Shown: positions 1 through 27,739, counted from the first letter of the stretch. The stretch: DNA of 27,739 bases from a virus (IMGVR_UViG_2695420411_000008); one strand, 5' to 3'. Numbers and translations: made by a program. Notes: generated from the letters alone by a model not told the origin.

Positions 1-759
1 ATGAGCCAAATTTTACTGCAACCTGCTAACGCGATGATTACGCTGGAAAACGTCAATAAATGGTATGGACAATTCCATGTTTTGAAAAATATAAATTTAA
101 CCGTGCAACCGGGAGAACGGATCGTTCTGTGTGGCCCTTCAGGTTCCGGTAAATCGACAACCATTCGTTGTATTAATCATCTGGAAGAACATCAACAGGG
201 ACGGATCGTGGTAGATGGCATCGAACTTAATGAAGATATCCGCAATATTGAGCGCGTCAGGCAGGAAGTGGGAATGGTCTTTCAGCATTTCAATCTCTTC
301 CCTCATCTGACCGTTCTACAGAACTGTACCCTGGCACCGATTTGGGTACGCAAGATGCCTAAGAAAGAGGCTGAAGATCTGGCGGTGCATTACCTCGAGC
401 GGGTGAGAATTGCCGAACATGCGCATAAGTTTCCCGGACAGATTTCAGGTGGTCAGCAGCAACGCGTTGCCATTGCGCGTTCGCTGTGTATGAAGCCGAA
501 AATTATGTTGTTTGATGAGCCAACGTCGGCGCTCGATCCTGAGATGGTGAAAGAGGTGCTGGATACGATGATTGGGCTGGCGCAGTCGGGTATGACAATG
601 CTGTGTGTAACACATGAGATGGGGTTTGCACGAACCGTCGCTGACCGGGTGATTTTTATGGATCGTGGGGAGATAGTGGAACAAGCTGCACCTGATGAGT
701 TTTTTGCGCATCCTAAATCAGAGCGTACGAGGGCATTTTTATCGCAGGTAATCCATTAA
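1..759 (+). CDS. yhdZ: Polar amino-acid ABC transporter ATP-binding protein (YhdZ-like); chromosomal flank
   Basis: Walker [13 protein letters not shown] signature SGGQQQRV, Walker [11 protein letters not shown] in the 252-aa ORF; near-identity to E. coli YhdZ is from memory, not a search. Confidence 0.85.
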
Positions 760-1499: not shown

Positions 1500-1636
1500 C
1501 ATCAGAACTGATTGAGGTAATCCGCATGCGCTGGACACGCCTCCGCATTTATCGCCGCCCGGGTTCGGTGCTGGTGGACTACCGCATTCTTCGCAATTTT
1601 ATTCGCATTAACCAGTTGGCAGGAGCTGCTGCATGA
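1496..1636 (+). CDS. Small basic hypothetical protein (46 aa), translationally coupled between rusA and Q
   Basis: ATG overlaps rusA stop (ATGA) and its stop overlaps the Q start (ATGA); Arg-rich; below the ORF-track length cutoff. Confidence 0.3.
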
Positions 1637-2463
1637 ACCTCGAAAACACCGTGAAATACCACTTCGCCAAATCGACGCTGATTAGCGACTCTCCGCGCGC
1701 TACGGCCTCCGACTCGCTGACCGGAACGGACATCATGGCAGCCATGGGCATGACCCAGGAACGCGCCGCCATGGGCTACAGTGCCTTTCTCGGAAAGATG
1801 GGCATCAGCAACAACGATCGGGAGAGAGCGATCGAGCTGCTGGCCCAGTATGCGCTGACAAAATGCGATAGCGTGGCTGCCCTGCGCAAACTGGACGCTG
1901 GGGTTAAACCGCTGGTGATGCGCCAGCTTGCTACCTTCGCTTTTGAGGACTATTCCCGCAGCGCCGCCAGCGTCAAGAGGTGCGAATGTTGCGCAGGGCA
2001 GGGGTTCATTGAGGCTGACGTTTTTAGTATGAAAACCAGCATCTCTGGCTGCGCAAAAGACATCATTCAAAAATCAAAAAAATGGGGGCTGAAGGTTATC
2101 CCTTCGCAGCATCAGAATCGGCGTGAGGTGAAAGAGGTGGCCCGGGTGCTGTGCTCGGCCTGCAAAGGGAAGAAGGTCGTCAGCTGCGCATGTAATGACT
2201 GCCAGGGGCGCGGAAAAGCTGTCAGCAAGACGCTGACAGAAAAGCAGGGCGCGCCGGTGATGGCCGACTGCAAGCGCTGCGGCGGGCGCGGGTATGAGCG
2301 GATCCCCTCGACTGAGGCATATGCGGCTGTTTGCCTTATTACCGACGCCATTACTCTGGACACCTGGAAAAAGTCAGTGAAGCCGTTTTACGACCGGCTG
2401 ATCACCAAATTCGACATGGAAGAAGCGTGGGCCGAATCGCAACTGCGAGCAATAACTCGATAA
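1633..2463 (+). CDS. Q: Late-gene antitermination protein Q
   Basis: AGGAG RBS 7 nt upstream; position after rusA and before the lysis cassette; Cys-rich zinc-finger-like segment (CSACKGKKVVSCACNDCQGRGK, CKRCGGRG). Confidence 0.7.
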   Translation: MNLENTVKYHFAKSTLISDSPRATASDSLTGTDIMAAMGMTQERAAMGYSAFLGKMGISNNDRERAIELLAQYALTKCDSVAALRKLDAGVKPLVMRQLATFAFEDYSRSAASVKRCECCAGQGFIEADVFSMKTSISGCAKDIIQKSKKWGLKVIPSQHQNRREVKEVARVLCSACKGKKVVSCACNDCQGRGKAVSKTLTEKQGAPVMADCKRCGGRGYERIPSTEAYAAVCLITDAITLDTWKKSVKPFYDRLITKFDMEEAWAESQLRAITR

Positions 2464-4294: not shown

Positions 4295-4648
4295 AAAAAA
4301 TGTTAACCCACGGAAAGTTCAAGGAGGTCTTTTTGACCCAGTTTTTGGACTTCCCCTTAAGCAACCGTTGATCGTGACGTCAGGGTTCCTGAGCCAGGGG
4401 TAACAGAAATCGAGAGGATAGTGCGAAGGGAGAATTCCGAGATGGATGACCATCTTGAGATTTTTACCACCCGCGTCTGGGACGTTGGAGTCTCCCGCCT
4501 TTCAGGTCACGCTGTTGGGTCAATTCATGAAAAGCCAAGGGGCTCAGGTGACGCTGCTTGGTTTGGCCCCGAAATGTCCGTCGCGTCATTAGGGATAACT
4601 GAACCTTGTAGTAATTCGCATTAGCTTGGCCTTCCTTTCACCTACAAA

Positions 4649-4668
4649 CCGCCTACGGGCGGTTTTTT
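4649..4668 (+). terminator. Rho-independent terminator (possibly bidirectional)
   Basis: CCGCC-TACG-GGCGG hairpin followed by TTTTTT; reverse strand has hairpin then TTTGT. Confidence 0.6.
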
Positions 4669-7117: not shown

Positions 7118-8596
7118 ATGTCCCGAAAGAAACGCCAGAGCGGCGCACAAAAGCCCGTCCGGACTGGTGACGGGTACAACAACTTCGCGGCTAAGCTCGG
7201 CGGCTATACATCCAACATCCAGAGCGGTGGGAGCTATCAGCCTGGCTATATCTCGCGTAACCGCGTACAGCTGGAATTTGCGTATCGTTCATCGTTTTTG
7301 GTGGGCGCCGGTGTAGACGCTATGGCCGATGATATGACCCGCAAGGGCATAAACATCAGTTCCAAGCTCGAGCCCGGACAGAAGGGTAAATTTGAGATGT
7401 TCTGGGATGACATTGCCATCTGGGACGGACTGAACGACACCCTGAAGTGGTCCCGGCTGTACGGCGGCGCGCTGCTGGTGGTGCTGCTGGAAGGGCAGGA
7501 CATGTCCACTCCGCTGAAGCTCGACCGCATCAAAGAGGGTCAGTTCAAGGGGGTGATGTGCCTCGACCGCTGGCAGGTAACCCCGAGCTATTACGACCTG
7601 GTGACCGATTACGGCCCGGAGTTCGGCAAGCCGAAGTACTACAAGGTGGTGACCAACCAGCAGGGGATCCCCCCGTGGAAGATTCACCACAGCCGCATTA
7701 TCCGCATGGAAGGTGACACACTGCCATTCCAGCAGGCGCAGACCGAGAACGGCTGGGGAATGTCGGTAGTCGAGCGTATCTACGAGCGCATTCAGGCGTT
7801 CGATACCGCAACCGTCGGCACTACACAGCTGATTCACAAGGCGCACCTGCGTACCTACAGCATTGACGGATTGCGTAAGATTCTGGCCACTGGCGGCACG
7901 CTGGAAGATGGTCTGATGAAGCACATGGACATGATCCGTGAGTTCCAGACCATAGAAGGCATGACCATCATGGATAAGTCGGACGAGTTCCAGACCCACA
8001 GTTACTCGTTCGCCGGGATCGCTGATGTCATCCTGCGCTTTGCTGAGCAGGTATCCGGCGCAACTGGGATCCCGCTGGTGCGCCTGTTCGGGCAGTCACC
8101 ATCCGGATTCAGCACCGGCGACGGGGATCTGGAGAACTACTACAGCCGCGTTAACTCGCTGCAGGAGCGCCGCCTGCGCCGACACATCCGCTGGCTGCTG
8201 GATATCTCCTGGCGCTCCCTGTTCGGACAGCCCCTGCCGGAAGACTTCACCTTCGAGTTCAACAAGCTCTGGGAGATGTCGGACACTGACCGGGCGACAA
8301 TGGCCAGCAACGTGGCCACCGCCCTGGCGACTGCCGTGCGCGACATCGGTATGCCGCAGCATGCCGCGCTGAACGACCTGCGCAACCTGTCCGACATCAT
8401 CGGTATCGGCGGCTCTATCACCGACAAGGATATTGAAGATGCCAAAGCAGAATGGGAGGAGGCTGAATCTGAAACCGAACCTCCGCCGCAAATCGGAGCG
8501 CCAGTATCAGAAAAGTCTACAGGAGATAGCGCGTCAGTGCGGCGCGATAGTAACTGGCTCCTACGATGGTTCGGAAGCGAGCGCCGAGCAGGTTAG
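7118..8596 (+). CDS. Portal protein
   Basis: 492-aa ORF immediately after terL and before the head-morphogenesis gene; last ~50 aa overlap the next gene and look compositionally odd. Confidence 0.8.
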   Translation: MSRKKRQSGAQKPVRTGDGYNNFAAKLGGYTSNIQSGGSYQPGYISRNRVQLEFAYRSSFLVGAGVDAMADDMTRKGINISSKLEPGQKGKFEMFWDDIAIWDGLNDTLKWSRLYGGALLVVLLEGQDMSTPLKLDRIKEGQFKGVMCLDRWQVTPSYYDLVTDYGPEFGKPKYYKVVTNQQGIPPWKIHHSRIIRMEGDTLPFQQAQTENGWGMSVVERIYERIQAFDTATVGTTQLIHKAHLRTYSIDGLRKILATGGTLEDGLMKHMDMIREFQTIEGMTIMDKSDEFQTHSYSFAGIADVILRFAEQVSGATGIPLVRLFGQSPSGFSTGDGDLENYYSRVNSLQERRLRRHIRWLLDISWRSLFGQPLPEDFTFEFNKLWEMSDTDRATMASNVATALATAVRDIGMPQHAALNDLRNLSDIIGIGGSITDKDIEDAKAEWEEAESETEPPPQIGAPVSEKSTGDSASVRRDSNWLLRWFGSERRAG

Positions 8597-8798
8597 CGCC
8601 CGGCTGATAGATTACTCGCTGCTGATTGACGACTGGGCCGACCGGGTAGCCAAACGCATGTTCCTGCAGGTTGAGCAGGAGGAGTGGAACCAGTGGCGCT
8701 CTGTGTCGCAGGAAATCTCTGAGGGGCTGCGGGATGTTGTCGGCAATACGCCGGTGGGGTTCGTGGCTCAGGACATCGTATCCCGCAGGTGCAGCTGA
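8439..8798 (+). CDS. Head morphogenesis protein (SPP1 gp7 / Mu F-like), N-terminal fragment
   Basis: Frame-0 ORF with LIDYSLLIDDWADRVAKRMF segment; ends at TGA 8796-8798 just where the conserved domain continues in another frame. Confidence 0.55.
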   Translation: MPKQNGRRLNLKPNLRRKSERQYQKSLQEIARQCGAIVTGSYDGSEASAEQVSARLIDYSLLIDDWADRVAKRMFLQVEQEEWNQWRSVSQEISEGLRDVVGNTPVGFVAQDIVSRRCS

Positions 8799-9190
8799 TT
8801 AAATCTCTTCCGCTGGAAGCTGCCGACCGCGTTCGTGACATCCAGGAGCGCGCAATGGAAGCCGTCATAAACGGTGAGCGCCCCGACGCGCTCTATCGGA
8901 TGATTATGGAGTCCGGCGACGTGGCAGAGAGCCGCGCGAAGATGATCGCCCGCACCGAAATCGGCCGGGCCACGACAGCGCTCACCCAGGCGCGCGCTGA
9001 GTCGATTGGCTCTGAGGGCTACTGGTGGCGCATCGAAGGGGCCGGAACGCGCGATTCACATCGCTGGATGAAAGATAAGTTTGTGCGCTGGGATAACCCG
9101 CCGACGCTGGACGGTATGACCGGGCACGCCGGGTGCCTGCCGAACTGCAAATGCTGGCCGGAAGTGCAGGTGCCAAATCCCAGGAAATAA
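8789..9190 (+). CDS. Head morphogenesis protein (SPP1 gp7 / Mu F-like), C-terminal fragment
   Basis: QVQLIKSLP, ARTEIGRA, WDNPP, Cys-containing C-terminus characteristic of this family; frame is -1 relative to the N-terminal fragment. Confidence 0.7.
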   Translation: MQLIKSLPLEAADRVRDIQERAMEAVINGERPDALYRMIMESGDVAESRAKMIARTEIGRATTALTQARAESIGSEGYWWRIEGAGTRDSHRWMKDKFVRWDNPPTLDGMTGHAGCLPNCKCWPEVQVPNPRK

Positions 9191-9227
9191 AAAAGCCATC
9201 ACAAGGATGGCTGGGAGGGAGGCTTTC

Positions 9228-9425
9228 TCAATCTACATAAACCCTGAATTGAGCTGAATTACCCTCTACGGCATCAATGCGAGCGTTCACCCCGAGCGCT
9301 GCAAGTTGGTCTTTGATTTTGGTGTAACGCTCGCCCTCAACATAGTCATTGTTGAGGCCAGTGGTGCGTGACCACTCATCTGCCATGCGATCCATCTTCG
9401 CTAACAATTCTGCTTTAGTGCTCAT
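9228..9425 (-). CDS. Hypothetical 65-aa protein, antisense insertion inside the head module
   Basis: Minus-strand ATG at 9425 preceded by AAGGAG at 7-nt spacing; TTGACA -35-like hexamer further upstream (plus-strand 9485-9490); ORF track's upstream Met lacks an RBS. Confidence 0.55.
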   Translation of the reverse strand: MSTKAELLAKMDRMADEWSRTTGLNNDYVEGERYTKIKDQLAALGVNARIDAVEGNSAQFRVYVD

Positions 9426-9543
9426 TTCAAAACTCCTTTTGGTGGTGGGAATCAATGTTCATGTTTTCACTATCGAATTTAGAGTGTCAAGGCCGAAAAT
9501 TAGTGGTGAAGAGCTCGTGCTAAAGCATTAGATAAACCCCAGT

Positions 9544-9566
9544 GGCCGCTACTGCGCGGCCTTTTT
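9544..9566 (+). terminator. Intrinsic terminator-like hairpin just upstream of the DUF2213 gene
   Basis: GGCCGC / TACTGC / GCGGCC stem-loop followed by TTTTT. Confidence 0.5.
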
Positions 9567-9592
9567 ACTGCCCGCAATTCAGCAGGTAACCC

Positions 9593-10846
9593 ATGAAATA
9601 CTTCTTCATTACCCGCCTTGGCGAAACGCGCTACCAGCTGGCGGACGGCTCCCTGCTGTGCAAAGACGTCCCGATCGCCCGCACCGGCACGCAAACCTAT
9701 CTTCCCGAAGAAATCGGCCTTGAGCCTGGCGCAGATGGGCTGGTGGTCATCTATCGCACCGAGGACGAGGTTTTCTCTCCAGAGACTATGGCGAGCTTCG
9801 AGGGCATGGCGGTAACGCTGGATCACCCGGAAGACGGCGAAGGCAACATCGTTTTCGTTAACCCGGCGAACTTCGCGGAGCTGGCCCATGGCCATATCCA
9901 GAACGTCCGCCGCGGCACCGGCGATAAAACCGACCTGTTGATCGCTGATGTGCTGGTGAAGCGGCAGGAAGGCATCGATGCGGTCAACGCTGGTAAAAAC
10001 CAGGTCAGCTGTGGCTACGACGCCCAGTACGTGCAAATCGGCCCGGGCAAGGGCAAGCAAACAGAAATCACAGGAAACCATCTGGCCATCGTTGATAAGG
10101 GCCGGGCGGGCTCCCGCTGTGCAATCGGGGATTCGGCCCCATCAAAACCAAAGGAGAAGCCTGCAATGTCATGGCTGAAAAAACTGGCTCAGGCCATTAA
10201 GACGAAAGATGAGGACGCGCTGACGAAGCTCATCGATGAAGCGCCGGACATGCCATCTGACGGCATGGGTTCCATCCCCGGCGTAACCATCAACATGAAC
10301 GTGCCTTCACAGGCTACCGCGCTGCCAGCAGACCAGAAGACCACGGTCGATGAAGATACCGATCCGGAAAAGAAAACCGGTGATGAAGAGGCGCCCGCCT
10401 GGGCGCAGGCTCTGATTGCTCGACTCGATAAGCTGGAAGGCAAAACTGGCGATGCTGATCTGGACGACGAAACCAAAACCGGTGACGAAGACGCGAAAGA
10501 GGATGCGAAGGTAACCGGCGATGCGGCCTATAAGCGCAACATCATCGGCGACGCAGAGATCATCTGCCCGGGCTTCCAGCCTGCCGGCGACAAAGGCCTG
10601 AAGCGTCAGGTACTCAACCAGGCGCTGCGCACAGGCGACAGCCTGAAGGCGTTTGGCATTTCCGACTTCGCCAAAGCGCCGAAGGCCACTGTCGATGCGG
10701 TGTTTAAGGCTGCAGTCGAGATCAGTAAGGCAAAGAACCGCATCACCCCGCCTTCAGGCAAACCAACTGGCGACCGCGCCCGCGGCCCAATGTCCCCGGC
10801 TGAGTTGAACAAAATCAACGCCGAATTCTGGAAACGTAACAAATAA
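9593..10846 (+). CDS. Phage head protein, DUF2213 family (putative scaffold/head-processing protein)
   Basis: N-terminus MKYFFITRLGETRYQLADGSLLCKDVPIARTGTQTY typical of DUF2213; acidic central region with repeated KTGD(E/A) motifs. Confidence 0.7.
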   Translation: MKYFFITRLGETRYQLADGSLLCKDVPIARTGTQTYLPEEIGLEPGADGLVVIYRTEDEVFSPETMASFEGMAVTLDHPEDGEGNIVFVNPANFAELAHGHIQNVRRGTGDKTDLLIADVLVKRQEGIDAVNAGKNQVSCGYDAQYVQIGPGKGKQTEITGNHLAIVDKGRAGSRCAIGDSAPSKPKEKPAMSWLKKLAQAIKTKDEDALTKLIDEAPDMPSDGMGSIPGVTINMNVPSQATALPADQKTTVDEDTDPEKKTGDEEAPAWAQALIARLDKLEGKTGDADLDDETKTGDEDAKEDAKVTGDAAYKRNIIGDAEIICPGFQPAGDKGLKRQVLNQALRTGDSLKAFGISDFAKAPKATVDAVFKAAVEISKAKNRITPPSGKPTGDRARGPMSPAELNKINAEFWKRNK

Positions 10847-21387: not shown

Positions 21388-21408
21388 GCGCCGGAACTAC
21401 CGGCGCTC
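21388..21408. terminator. Hairpin shared by the convergent inserted genes
   Basis: GGCGCCGG / AACTA / CCGGCGC(T) stem-loop between convergent stops; T-rich tract on the minus-strand side. Confidence 0.5.
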
Positions 21409-21410
21409 AG

Positions 21411-21761
21411 TTACTCGTCTTTAAAACTTATAATTTTGTACTGCTCCAGTACTTCTGAAAGCTCCTTTGATGTCAGATTTTGTATTTCGATCGTACCTTT
21501 TTCAGTGGTTACCGTTATTTTTTTTGATGATCTGGTCTGTAACCATTTTCTCGCTATCGATGCAATGGCGATACAAGCTGGTGATGATGTGATAACGGTA
21601 ATAGATATTTCGAGAATTGTGCCAATAGCGCCAGGAGAATCACCCGTTCTGACTCTTTTACTTACTACATAGTCATTAGCGGGTATGTTATCCTGGATTA
21701 CAGGAAGTAACTCTTTCCAAATAGCTGGAGTAAATTTTATGGTTGTTTCTGATTTTGGCAT
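21411..21761 (-). CDS. Hypothetical membrane protein (116 aa), convergent partner in the insertion
   Basis: Minus-strand ORF with a central hydrophobic segment AIGTILEISITVITSSPACIAIASIA; weak RBS; AT-rich. Confidence 0.45.
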   Translation of the reverse strand: MPKSETTIKFTPAIWKELLPVIQDNIPANDYVVSKRVRTGDSPGAIGTILEISITVITSSPACIAIASIARKWLQTRSSKKITVTTEKGTIEIQNLTSKELSEVLEQYKIISFKDE

Positions 21762-21941
21762 AAAGGTTTCAGGCCCCTATCGAGAGAAGCTAAAAATTGC
21801 CTACCGGCTTTTCCTTAGCAGCCTGTATCTTGCTACAAATCACGACGTTACCGTGGTTCTAAGCAAAACCTATATTAAGAGCTGCAATGAAGATAAATAG
21901 CACGCATTAACTCACCCTCAAATCCTGACATTTGATCAGTA

Positions 21942-21962
21942 ACCCGCCTCGGCGGGTTTTTT
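21942..21962 (+). terminator. Intrinsic terminator upstream of the baseplate spike gene
   Basis: ACCCGCC-TC-GGCGGGT hairpin followed by TTTTTT, 18 nt before the ATG at 21980. Confidence 0.6.
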
Positions 21963-24866: not shown

Positions 24867-25645
24867 TGGCTGGAACTAATGATTTTAAAGCGTTTGCGAC
24901 AGATGCTAATGCAAATGTTACCTCGCAGGAGGAATGGGAGACGCTAACCGCACTGAAGAAAGGATTCTCCTCGGGTAAAGCATCCAGCGCACAGGTCAGT
25001 AAAGCGCTGCGCCAACCGTCGACGATGGCGGCTGTACTGGGGCAGTTTATCGCGAACGCCGAACTGGACGCGCTCGATGATGGTGACGTTGATGGACTGG
25101 TGGCAAAGCTGGCGACAGCGATTACCACAAACCTTGGTTTGGGAGAAGGCTCAGCATTACCCGTTGGCGTACCTGTTCCGTGGCCTTCAGCCACACCGCC
25201 GACAGGCTGGCTGAAATGCAACGGTGCCGCTTTTTCTGCTGAAGAATACCCGGAACTGGCAAAGGCTTACCCGACAAATAAATTGCCTGATTTACGTGGT
25301 GAGTTTATTCGTGGCTGGGATGACGGGCGTGGAGTGGATAGCGGTCGTACTTTATTAACGAATCAAGAGCATGCAGTAATTTCTCATAATCATGGAATAC
25401 CTACAAAAGTGGGGTCAGTTACTAATATCCCGTATGGAATAGAACAGGTTATATCTGATGAAACCATTTTTTCATCAGCAAAAACAGTTGGTGTGGATTA
25501 CTGGTCTAACAGTGAAAGAGTTTTTACTTATACCTCTGGTGGAAGAAATGGTGCTGAATCAGTGAGTTCACCTGATGCCTCCTCTTTAATTAAAGAAACC
25601 AGACCACGGAACCTAGCATTTGCGTATATCGTGAGGGCTGCATAA
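24866..25645 (+). CDS. Tail fibre protein: constant N-terminal part fused to the currently expressed variable C-terminal domain
   Basis: GGGGGAG RBS 9 nt before ATG 24866 (ATG overlaps upstream stop); C-terminal PWP...GWLKCNG...LPDLRGEFIRGWDDGRG collar-type receptor-binding domain; crossover site inside the gene. Confidence 0.75.
   Translation: MAGTNDFKAFATDANANVTSQEEWETLTALKKGFSSGKASSAQVSKALRQPSTMAAVLGQFIANAELDALDDGDVDGLVAKLATAITTNLGLGEGSALPVGVPVPWPSATPPTGWLKCNGAAFSAEEYPELAKAYPTNKLPDLRGEFIRGWDDGRGVDSGRTLLTNQEHAVISHNHGIPTKVGSVTNIPYGIEQVISDETIFSSAKTVGVDYWSNSERVFTYTSGGRNGAESVSSPDASSLIKETRPRNLAFAYIVRAA
25122..25147. promoter_or_regulatory. Left inversion crossover site (hix/gix-like, 26 bp)
   Basis: TTACCACAAACC-TT-GGTTTGGGAGAA; the 14-bp core TTGGTTTGGGAGAA (25134-25147) is a perfect inverted copy of 27106-27119. 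Confidence 0.6.
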
Positions 25646-26247
25646 TGGTGAAAGCAAAATTAAACAGTGCGTTTATTGCCACCGTGGCAGGTGAAATCAC
25701 TGTGTACAACTACCGGGGCGACACCCGCGAATACATATCCTCATCGGTTGAGTATCTGCCTGTGGGGGTGGGTATTCCTGCCAATTCCTGTACCGATGCG
25801 CCCGGCACACATAAAGCTGGTTATGCAATCTGCCGTTCTGCAGATTTTAACTCATGGGAATATGTGCCAGACCATCGCGGTGAAACGGTATATAGCACTG
25901 AAACAGGAGAATCAAAAGAAATCACAGCTCCGGGTGATTACTCTGAAAATACAACTACTATCGCCCCGTTAACGCCATTCGATAAATGGGATGGTGAGAA
26001 ATGGGTGACCGATACTGAGGCACAGCATAGCGCCGCAGTAGACGTGGCAGAAGCACAGCGCCAGTCGCTGATTGATGCTGCTATGGCTTCCATCAGTCTG
26101 ATTCAGCTGAAATTGCAGGCCGGGCGGCAACTGACGCAAGCAGAAATCACTCGCCTTAACGCTGTGCTGGATTACATTGACACGGTGACGGCAACAGATA
26201 CCAGCACCGCGCCGGATGTCATCTGGCCTGAACTGCCGGAGGCGTAG
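25645..26247 (+). CDS. Tail fibre assembly protein (Tfa, active orientation)
   Basis: ATG overlaps tail-fibre stop; conserved C-terminal DTSTAPDVIWPELPEA motif shared with the minus-strand paralogue. Confidence 0.75.
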   Translation: MVKAKLNSAFIATVAGEITVYNYRGDTREYISSSVEYLPVGVGIPANSCTDAPGTHKAGYAICRSADFNSWEYVPDHRGETVYSTETGESKEITAPGDYSENTTTIAPLTPFDKWDGEKWVTDTEAQHSAAVDVAEAQRQSLIDAAMASISLIQLKLQAGRQLTQAEITRLNAVLDYIDTVTATDTSTAPDVIWPELPEA

Positions 26248-26662
26248 GCCATTCAATATCTGGAGCACTGGAGGTATCAACCAGTTCCAGTGCGTCCAGA
26301 TAATCCAGCCACAAATTATATTGCGCCAGTTCCTCACTTTTCAGACGACCAATCGCCGCTTTGCCAGGCCACTGATGAGTATTGATGTAGGTATTGACTT
26401 CAGAAACCAAAGATATTTTTTTCATTTCAGCCGTCAACACCTCATCCTCTTTTGAAGGGGGTGGGGAATTAATCCATACTGGCCGTCCTGAACTGTCAGC
26501 GCCAATTTCTTTCCCTTCTGGATGCAGCCCAAGAAATTGCTCATATGTTTCTCTGGTAATTTCAATAACATCATCAGGAAGCGTTCCCGCATCCTCATAT
26601 TCTGGAAACAATTCTTGCAGATAAAAACTTTTACTTCCGGGTGAAAAGAATACTGAGTTCAT
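26219..26662 (-). CDS. Tail fibre assembly protein (Tfa', alternative orientation)
   Basis: Convergent with tfa, overlapping by 29 nt; C-terminal DTSSAPDIEWPTPP motif parallels Tfa. Confidence 0.7.
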   Translation of the reverse strand: MNSVFFSPGSKSFYLQELFPEYEDAGTLPDDVIEITRETYEQFLGLHPEGKEIGADSSGRPVWINSPPPSKEDEVLTAEMKKISLVSEVNTYINTHQWPGKAAIGRLKSEELAQYNLWLDYLDALELVDTSSAPDIEWPTPPAVQAR

Positions 26663-26664
26663 TC

Positions 26665-27119
26665 TTACCGTCCAATGATTAATGCTGAGACGCTGGTATC
26701 TGAAGGAAAGGCTGCATTCAGTGGTTTGTCGACTTTGAACACAATCGTATTATTCCCCCTGACAGCGGCAAAAGAACAAACCGCAGTCGCGTATGAACCT
26801 GTAATATTACTGGATACACCACCATAAGCTGTTGTTGATACCAGAGGGATAACGCCCAGCACCTTATTAGGAAATACAAAGGGCAATGTGGCTGTGGCAA
26901 TATAAGACTTATTAGAACCTGTAATGGCATAAGCATTATCAGTCATTCCATTCATCGCCACCGGGCCGCTTATACTTACAGTAACCATCTGAATGATTAG
27001 CCCGTCAGGTTGACGAATCACAAAATTTCCATTGCCACCAGTAACCGTCCAGAAAGACATATCAGGGATTTGGTTTTCCCCGTTGCCCACATTCCGTTTT
27101 GCCGCTTCTCCCAAACCAA
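26665..27119 (-). CDS. Alternative tail-fibre C-terminal cassette (Sv'), currently lacking its own start
   Basis: Minus-strand frame open from the right crossover site; reads KVGLGEAAK across the core, matching NLGLGEGS at the left site, so inversion would fuse it in frame to the constant part. Confidence 0.65.
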
Positions 27120-27131
27120 CCTTTTTTATAA
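27106..27131. promoter_or_regulatory. Right inversion crossover site (hix/gix-like, 26 bp)
   Basis: TTCTCCCAAACC-AA-CCTTTTTTATAA; closely resembles hixL TTCTTGAAAACCAAGGTTTTTGATAA. Confidence 0.6.
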
Positions 27132-27190
27132 CCATCAAAAATCTGGTGATGCTTCGCCGTTTCTCCTGTTTTCATAACAGGAGAAATCCC

Positions 27191-27739
27191 ATGATTTACG
27201 GTTATGCCCGAGTATCAACAAACCACCAGGACACTGAATTGCAACTAACGGCGCTCAAGTCAGCGGGTTGTGAGAAAATTTTTGAAGAGCATGCCAGCGG
27301 GAGGAAATCGAATCGGCCGGTTCTAAAACGGCTGATCGCCACTATGCAGCCGGGGGATGAACTGGTGGTCTGGAAGCTGGACAGGATAGGCCGCAACGTT
27401 CTGCATGCGCTGTTGATGTTCCAGCAGTTACAGGAAAAGGGTATCAACTTCCGCAGTATTACCGATGGCGTGGATCTCAAAACAGCCAGCGGCCGCTATA
27501 ACTTTCGTAACATCCTTTCCGCAGCACAATATGAATCTGATCTTAATAGCGAACGTACCTTAGCAGGGCTGGCCGTAGCCAGGGCAAAAGGGCGAGTTGG
27601 TGGTCGCAGGCCTAAGTTCACGGATGAGCAATGGCGGGAAATGGGGGAGCGGATGGCAACCGGTGAATCACGACAAAGCGTATCAAAAACGTATGGAGTA
27701 GGGCTCTCAACTCTGTATAAAAAGTTTCCAGCTAGCTGA
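27191..27739 (+). CDS. Serine recombinase, DNA invertase (Hin/Gin/Cin/Pin family)
   Basis: AGGAGA RBS; N-terminal YARVSTNHQD with catalytic Ser, VVWKLDRIGR motif, C-terminal HTH GVGLSTLYKKFPAS; 182 aa, stop at the window end. Confidence 0.9.
   Translation: MIYGYARVSTNHQDTELQLTALKSAGCEKIFEEHASGRKSNRPVLKRLIATMQPGDELVVWKLDRIGRNVLHALLMFQQLQEKGINFRSITDGVDLKTASGRYNFRNILSAAQYESDLNSERTLAGLAVARAKGRVGGRRPKFTDEQWREMGERMATGESRQSVSKTYGVGLSTLYKKFPAS

Follow-up and report, generated by a model that had tools for sequence, protein, structure and literature searches.

An antisense gene for a 65-residue protein in the late head operon of a lambdoid-regulated Escherichia coli prophage: a probable moron in a recurrent cargo slot

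How does a small gene come to lie antisense within the late head operon of a phage, and why does a terminator of the opposite strand stand beside it, with no gene of that strand ending nearby? This is the question raised by IMGVR_UViG_2695420411_000008, a viral DNA of 27,739 nucleotides (the whole stretch is called the window in what follows), in which a minus-strand gene for a 65 amino acid protein is placed between a Mu-F-like head morphogenesis gene (Mu-F) and a DUF2213 head protein gene. The original prediction, made from the DNA alone, suggested an independently regulated insertion, expressed from the prophage and consisting of a 65-codon minus-strand open reading frame (ORF) with AAGGAG at ideal spacing and TTGACA upstream, together with an orphan plus-strand hairpin with a T5 run 27 nucleotides (nt) before the next gene. 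The ORF with its signals and the hairpin are all present where they were predicted. With a probability of about 70%, we read the 353-bp segment that contains the ORF as a moron, that is, a horizontally acquired, self-contained cassette lying antisense in the late head operon of a lambdoid-regulated prophage, with the plus-strand hairpin belonging to the phage backbone and not to the cassette.

The window is the late region of a prophage, with chromosomal counterparts at 99.9% identity in five complete E. coli genomes, and the copy in NZ_CP062811 belongs to an element near tonB/yciI that has lambdoid replication and immunity genes. Its plus-strand genes include those for a Q-type antiterminator, a lysozyme and a head block comprising the small and large terminase, the portal, Mu-F, DUF2213, the cement protein and the major capsid protein. 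The Pfam family names point to a structural module of the E217/XM1/Pa193 type, and PHROGs labels families related to the DUF2213 protein as head maturation protease.

The case for an insertion comes from relatives that lack the cassette, in which the distance from Mu-F to DUF2213 is 51 bp vs 402 bp in the window. In Megablast searches of E. coli genomes and isolated phages, the matches came in two pieces, query positions 1-~490 and 845-979, which together span only ~565-630 bp in the subject, and the window segment at approximately 9191-9543 is therefore missing from those genomes. Query 845, where homology to the cargo-less phages restarts, is window position 9544, the first base of the hairpin. 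Four cargo-less genomes were read directly, namely those of the isolated Klebsiella phages ST11-VIM1phi8.3 and Mulock, of E. coli ST361 and of ECONIH4. In all of them (A)GGCCGC(C)-loop-(G)GCGGCC(T)-T4 lies 1-3 nt past the Mu-F stop codon and leads into (A)TGCCCGCAATTCAGCAGGTAACCCATG, the DUF2213 start. The guanine-plus-cytosine (GC) content also sets the segment apart, with a fraction of 0.462 for the cassette and 0.398 for its non-coding part vs 0.595 and 0.574 for the two flanks. The notion of an independently organized insertion is borne out by this extra DNA of lower GC content relative to the 51-bp relatives, and by the cassette having its own Shine-Dalgarno sequence, a conserved -35 element and its own terminator.

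The plus-strand hairpin has six G-C pairs and a 6-nt loop and is stable in the predicted fold. Its stem and a run of T4-T6 are kept in every relative examined, with the loops TACTGC, CAATGA, CATTGA, CACTGA, AC and TCCG. In the window the nearest plus-strand gene end lies 354 nt upstream of the hairpin; in a close relative with a different, sense-oriented cargo gene (locus L004, see below) the hairpin directly follows that gene. Because cargo-less genomes carry the hairpin directly after Mu-F, and because homology resumes at 9544, the hairpin is placed in the backbone and outside the inserted unit, contrary to what had been proposed; on comparative grounds it is a conserved intercistronic backbone element that the insertion displaced by 354 nt. 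The term orphan is thus apt for the window, where no plus-strand gene ends nearby, but not for the cargo-less relatives, where the Mu-F stop codon immediately precedes it. The hairpin could instead, or in addition, stabilize the 3' end of the Mu-F mRNA or mark a site at which the transcript is processed between Mu-F and DUF2213.

The DUF2213 gene starts (9593) 27 nt past the T-run of the hairpin, and the 26-nt leader between them is 92-96% identical across loci, vs 71-89% for the start of the coding sequence (CDS). This conservation of the leader spans loci L002-L006, L009, L010 and L015-L017, even where the DUF2213 protein is only 53% identical. A small predicted stem in the leader pairs the AGG of the ribosome-binding site, and the leader may be a translational control element. 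The conserved right-hand anchor of the slot can be written as GCGGCCTTTT-N(2-6)-GCCCGCAATTCAGCAGGTAAC. As a separate observation, an 11-nt direct repeat with one mismatch, TACATAAACCC (9234-9244) and TAGATAAACCC (9529-9539), brackets most of the cassette, and in locus L010 the upstream copy extends further and resembles the last codons of the 65-residue protein gene. The repeat could be a scar of insertion or duplication but was not used as evidence, since by our own estimate chance alone would give ~0.7 pairs of this kind in 421 nt.

The ORF itself is conserved and intact in its relatives, the reverse of the unconserved and disrupted frame that would have counted against the original prediction. 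A search of 5.8 billion proteins found orthologues in seven clusters with 71-100% identity, every member exactly 65 residues long, from hosts that, where named, are E. coli, Enterobacter and Kluyvera, and with an annotation that is always hypothetical. In 4/4 independent contig types the orthologue lies antisense between Phage_Mu_F and DUF2213/Pa193_gp24 genes, and the terminases upstream differ. Pairwise Nei-Gojobori estimates between orthologues 71-92% identical gave ratios of nonsynonymous to synonymous substitution rates (dN/dS) of 0.07-0.20, with dS from 0.2 to >1. The annotated start is confirmed by an in-frame TAA two codons 5' of the ATG in loci L005 and L006. Because dN/dS is low, the length invariant and the antisense position kept, 9228-9425 is, from these comparisons, a real gene under purifying selection wherever present. 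The identical cassette is carried by E. coli NCTC11023, which is a culture-collection strain, and by E. coli Res13-Sevr-PER07-33 and PSJ-22. A scan of IMG/VR with the protein found only three identical copies, a scan of GTDB species found only two weak loci, and tblastn gave no match in 50,697 phage records or 72,556 plasmids. The divergence of the protein parallels that of the head proteins, at 92/83/71% vs 92/82/74% for DUF2213, and this co-divergence of the gene with the flanking head proteins suggests a single old acquisition that was afterward inherited vertically and, in sister lineages, replaced or lost.

The expression signals of the cassette are listed in Table 1. The purine-rich core of the Shine-Dalgarno sequence persists in the orthologous loci as AAAGGAG or AAAAGGG. 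In the putative promoter, the perfect -35 hexamer TTGACA and the element TGAAAACAT, which begins 15 nt after it, are invariant in 5/5 orthologous loci; between the two deepest lineages the non-coding DNA around these elements is only 44-68% identical, and the putative promoter is thus plausible and under evolutionary constraint. Positions 2 and 6 of the AAACAT hexamer are A and T, respectively. An alternative -10 element (GATAGT in the window, TTTAAT in L005) was ruled out, as it lies only 10 nt from the -35 element, and an inverted repeat around the -35 element (TTCAC..ACTA / TAGTGAA) was set aside as an operator, its arms being too short and imperfect. The original prediction had missed the cassette's own minus-strand terminator (9212-9194), which starts 15 nt after the stop codon of the ORF and has a 7-bp stem with a predicted stability of -11.4 kcal/mol (z -2.4). 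The pair that closes this stem shows a compensatory change: the window and L009 have A-U, L010 has G.U, and L005 and L006 have G-C. The terminator's U-tract covers the complement of the Mu-F stop codon (9188-9190), and with the terminator at this position the predicted leftward mRNA does not overlap any head-gene CDS. The plus-strand reading of the same sequence has no T-run, and the terminator is thus predicted to be unidirectional.

The same junction holds other DNA in other relatives. In the case of L004 (E. coli GZ2408P), whose portal and Mu-F are 95-96% identical to those of the window, the slot contains an unrelated sense gene for a 139 amino acid protein (L004 3031-3450), which has no match in Pfam, PHROGs or PADLOC. 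In L015 (E. coli 25-06685) and its relatives, the slot contains ~200 bp of 38% GC with no convincing ORF (L015 2969-3180). Both cargos lie between the Mu-F stop codon and the hairpin. The possibility that they are diverged versions of the 65-residue protein cassette was ruled out, since the three cargos share no sequence similarity. Among relatives with portal and Mu-F 82-96% identical, four states of the slot are thus seen, namely empty, the antisense 65-residue protein gene, the sense 139-residue protein gene and ~200 bp of non-coding DNA. Genome comparison accordingly shows a recurrent cargo slot where the Mu-F stop codon adjoins the hairpin.

Table 1. Positions of the cassette, its signals, the backbone elements around it and other genes of the window.
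Feature	Position	Strand	Basis or remark
Inserted cassette, 353 bp, between Mu-F stop codon and backbone hairpin	9191-9543 (approximate)	-	
65-residue protein gene, MSTKAELLAK...FRVYVD	9228-9425	-	Translation; RefSeq WP_053271619.1, hypothetical protein
Shine-Dalgarno AAGGAG, 7 nt before ATG (9425-9423)	9433-9438	-	Sequence reading
Putative sigma-70 promoter	9461-9490	-	-35 TTGACA 9490-9485; 18-nt spacer; extended -10 TG 9469-9468; -10-like AAACAT 9466-9461
Intrinsic terminator of the 65-residue protein gene	9182-9212	-	Stem-loop AGCCATC-CTTGT-GATGGCT-T6 at 9212-9194; U-tract 9193-9182
Backbone terminator-like hairpin GGCCGC-TACTGC-GCGGCC + T5	9544-9566	+	Stem-loop 9544-9561; T5 9562-9566
DUF2213 leader, 26 nt, ACTGCCCGCAATTCAGCAGGTAACCC	9567-9592	+	Also given as TGCCCGCAATTCAGCAGGTAACCC
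Left flank, Mu-F-like head morphogenesis gene, frameshifted	8658-9190	+	Phage_Mu_F match on 8789-9190, 1.5e-13
Right flank, DUF2213 (Pa193_gp24-like) head protein gene	9593-10846	+	DUF2213, 2.1e-42
Portal gene	7118-8596	+	
Q-type antiterminator gene	1633-2463	+	Pfam Antiterm, 1e-43
ABC-transporter ATPase gene	1-759		PF00005, 1.4e-39; ~0.9 kb upstream of Q gene
Second antisense gene, 116 residues	21411-21761	-	Baseplate region; Pfam EACC1, 1.1e-6
Third antisense gene, 86 residues	4760-5020	-	Between lysis genes and small terminase; phrog_16546; RefSeq hypothetical
Tail-fibre C-terminal and tail-fibre-assembly genes	26219-26662, 26665-27138	-	Oppose plus-strand tail-fibre genes

How a terminator can be tolerated ahead of the capsid genes is probably explained by the antiterminator. 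A terminator scan placed strong terminator-like hairpins on the late strand at 2841-2864, 4646-4665, 9544-9561 and 21941-21958, of which the one at 2841-2864 lies ~380 nt after Q and resembles tR'. In lambdoid phages such as lambda, P22 and 82, polymerase modified by Q passes such terminators and unmodified polymerase stops at them, and Q antitermination is the likely reason that terminators are tolerated inside this late operon. Since the prophage encodes Q, and given what is known of Q antitermination, the hairpin at 9544 would not limit late expression.

From these elements we propose the following workings of the cassette. In the lysogen, host sigma-70 polymerase would start at TTGACA-18-(TG)AAACAT and make a leftward mRNA of ~270 nt, which would be translated from the strong Shine-Dalgarno sequence into a soluble 65-residue protein. 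Leftward transcription would end at the cassette terminator by the Mu-F stop codon, as the sequence and its covariation indicate, so that no long antisense RNA to the head genes would be formed. The hairpin at 9544-9566 would serve as the phage's own intercistronic terminator and stop unmodified polymerase that heads toward the capsid genes after starting in or upstream of the slot. Polymerase modified by Q would pass it during late transcription, just as it must pass the other terminators on the plus strand of the operon. Read-through by Q combined with insulation by the hairpin would thus allow an insertion between the stop codon and the hairpin to be tolerated. During lytic growth, the convergent late transcript would be expected to override and silence the cassette.

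The product is predicted to be a soluble, cytoplasmic and mildly acidic protein (isoelectric point 4.99; grand average of hydropathicity -0.57), without a signal peptide or hydrophobic segment. AlphaFold2, run with a 20-sequence alignment, gave a model with a mean predicted local distance difference test (pLDDT) of 92.6 and a predicted template modeling score of 0.76; this run replaced an earlier one that had used only seven close orthologues and had reached a pLDDT of 65.8. The predicted fold consists of a helix (3-20), a conserved loop, a second helix (28-43) and a beta-hairpin (48-53/56-64). Searching 1.84 billion cluster representatives with a profile of the orthologues found only 12 proteins at E < 1e-3, and a profile search of the 5.8-billion-protein set found 20 family clusters. 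Family members are 64-75 residues long, with a few fused to longer C-terminal regions. They have in common the residues L7, W18, E30 and L41 as well as a loop motif, LSNDYSEGxRY, and the W/LSNDYSEGxRY motif is also found in remote homologues of 25-43% identity. Homology and structure-prediction searches gave no known family or fold and no significant match to a solved structure, the Foldseek matches of the model being weak only and indicating no fold relative. A literature search for the RefSeq accession WP_053271619.1 found no paper. To judge from these searches, the family is rare and unannotated.

The distant members are found in varied company. One adjoins TraG/MobC, a Phd antitoxin gene and a cluster of type I restriction-modification/AAA ATPase genes; one immediately precedes an S41 peptidase gene in an island with integrase, Vsr and Dcm genes; one is near an nSTAND/Mrr gene in the remnant of a Marinomonas prophage; one follows a HigB/HigA pair; and one lies between umuC and an SRAP gene. 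A further member is on L014, a 6551-bp contig of JGI 3300003838 in which a stretch of ~3.17 kb is repeated head to tail. Besides the homologue, every repeat has genes for proteins of 62, 105 and 124 residues, and L014 is probably the concatemeric assembly of a small circular replicon, either a plasmid or a phage-like element. An all-against-all blastp of the ORFs within 3 kb of nine distant homologues found no shared neighbor gene. Seen through these contexts, the family behaves as a portable stand-alone accessory gene of mobile elements in Proteobacteria and beyond. Since the distant members lie in variable regions of mobile elements, we favor among functions a role in inter-element conflict, in which the protein would act alone by binding a protein of the host or of a rival element, for example in superinfection exclusion or anti-defense, though even at best the odds for this proposal are somewhat less than even.

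Other explanations of the locus have been considered. One is that the protein has a role peculiar to this phage sub-lineage, either assisting head morphogenesis as an accessory factor or regulating the dosage of head genes, with the antisense transcription or the protein tuning the Mu-F/DUF2213 junction. Every close orthologue is locked to that junction and the neighboring DUF2213 leader is unusually conserved, as such a role would suggest; however, most relatives that have this head module lack the gene, among them Klebsiella phages that were isolated and form plaques, near-identical head modules hold unrelated cargo in the slot, distant homologues occur in non-phage elements that have no head genes, and the cassette terminator prevents antisense overlap with the Mu-F CDS. 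We regard a head role as improbable. Much the same grade is given to the idea that the protein is a small DNA-binding transcription regulator of helix-helix-wing-like build, expressed from the prophage and controlling phage or host genes. Its topology of two helices plus a beta-hairpin is loosely like part of a winged helix, and some of the weak Foldseek matches are MarR- or PadR-type regulators or a phage 'putative transcriptional regulator'.

The plus-strand hairpin might also be taken to end an unannotated small RNA or small ORF encoded on the plus strand inside the insertion, given that no plus-strand gene ends nearby in the window and that a 60-codon plus-strand ORF runs from 9349 to 9531. 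This is very unlikely, because the hairpin predates the insertion, being present after Mu-F in cargo-less genomes, because a consensus scan found no plus-strand promoter-like site, and because the ORF at 9349-9531 is merely the antisense frame of the locus of the 65-residue protein gene, which is under purifying selection. As for known small RNAs or riboswitches, an Rfam scan of 9100-9700 on both strands with E up to 1 returned only a chance-level asX2 match (E 0.15; 20 bits vs a gathering threshold of 70). Finally, the frame could be a chance ORF in junk or remnant DNA with coincidental signals. The protein is short and belongs to no known family, and motif scans are not significant alone (three terminator-like sites were found vs 1.3 +/- 1.2 in shuffles). 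Nonetheless, a chance frame is effectively refuted by dN/dS of 0.07-0.20 with dS >1, by the constant length of 65 residues, by remote homologues that bear the motif and by the confident AlphaFold2 model, and we give it next to no weight.

Several observations weigh against the moron interpretation and the conflict role attached to it. The strict synteny and the co-divergence with the head module would fit a head role as well. The putative promoter has an 18-nt spacer, and the consensus scan called no canonical sigma-70 promoter, because AAACAT fits the -10 consensus at only 3/6 positions. No significant family match was obtained in Pfam-A, PHROGs, NCBIfam or PADLOC with the window protein and 16-20 family members, and with no defense or anti-defense model matched, the conflict role is argued from genomic context only. 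One further consideration is that Mu-F is frameshifted in the window, having a 1-bp deletion near 8786 (CCCGCC to CCCGC) in an alignment with the intact 534-bp CDS of NZ_CP062811, and that its Pfam and PHROG matches are divided between two frames (8433-8798 and 8789-9190). The frameshift would be either a pseudogene in the window's prophage copy or a sequencing error; because of it, this prophage copy may be defective, and selection acting on it is uncertain.

The head block had been described as otherwise unidirectional, which needs qualification for the late operon as a whole, since two further antisense genes lie within it (Table 1). The product of the gene in the baseplate region is named 'effector-associated constant component EACC1' in RefSeq, and it is unusual for a phage tail module to contain a stand-alone EACC1 protein. 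This gene is bracketed in the same manner as the 65-residue protein gene, with a minus-strand terminator at 21406-21388 and the plus-strand terminator at 21941-21958, making a cassette of 21388-21958. Near the antisense gene between the lysis genes and the small terminase, the hairpin at 4646-4665 has A-run and T-run flanks and is apparently bidirectional. PADLOC gave no match for these other antisense genes of the window. At the left end of the window, an ABC-transporter ATPase gene lies upstream of Q, and in the NZ_CP062811 prophage Q is preceded instead by ylcG, rusA and ybcO-type genes; because the gene content 5' of Q differs between them, the region left of Q is mosaic or the window copy is rearranged. 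At the right end, in NZ_CP062811, a recombinase gene adjoins the opposed tail-fibre genes (the stretch corresponds to window 25645-27739 and L019 7592-9686), and this opposed stretch is probably an invertible host-range segment.

A wider reading would make the 65-residue protein the founder of an unrecognized family of stand-alone effectors in phage-host or phage-phage conflict, and the slot of E217/XM1-type head modules a dedicated hotspot of cargo exchange in which the backbone terminator insulates the capsid genes. We hold this reading as tentative and consider it doubtful. If the moron model is right, the locus would be a compact, cleanly delimited example of how temperate phages can place cargo in an essential late operon and leave its function undisturbed: the cassette is inserted backwards between a stop codon and a terminator and brings its own terminator, and Q keeps late expression intact. 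Many recently discovered anti-defense and exclusion proteins have the same profile as this family, which is confined to variable regions of islands, prophages and conjugative elements. The practical value of the finding lies in the protein, which is cheap to synthesize and screen, and the slot could be used as a search handle for small cargo genes.

The kind of element described here is well known, and the current understanding of it stands; it is the protein family that is uncharacterized. Morons, the Hendrix/Juhala concept, have been defined as extra DNA of different GC content with its own promoter and terminator (Cumby et al. 2012, PMC3594210). The cassette shows extra DNA, deviating GC content and its own terminator at the level of the sequence, and a putative promoter that is seen only as sequence conservation. 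As in the morons of HK97 and HK022, a single small gene of deviating GC content, with promoter-like and terminator elements, lies in a late operon between structural genes that are adjacent in relatives. HK97 gene 15 is a moron in the tail operon, and its product gp15 is described as a superinfection-exclusion protein (PMC3594210); in contrast, the present cassette is antisense, its product is a soluble acidic protein of 65 residues, and no homology to gp15 was found. P2-like prophages and P4-like satellites have variable cargo hotspots (Rousset et al. 2022, PMC9122126), which the slot resembles in being a fixed intergenic position where unrelated low-GC cargo alternates among close relatives. 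It differs from them in belonging to another phage lineage, in its place within a head operon and in the size of its cargo of 0.2-0.5 kb, and in that neither the 65-residue family nor the 139-residue protein of L004 matched PADLOC. The terminator arrangement is like that of the Q-antiterminated operons of lambda, P22 and 82, with a GC-rich hairpin and T-run on the late strand downstream of Q and a tR'-like terminator. Lambda also provides a precedent for the orientation of the gene, in that bor is an accessory gene of the late region that is expressed in the lysogen, runs opposite to the late transcript and encodes an outer-membrane lipoprotein with a signal peptide. The 65-residue protein gene is unrelated to bor in sequence, and its slot is in the head module, whereas bor is downstream of the lysis genes, but its anatomy is that of bor, both genes being small, autonomous and convergent with the Q-dependent late transcript of a prophage under lambdoid regulation.

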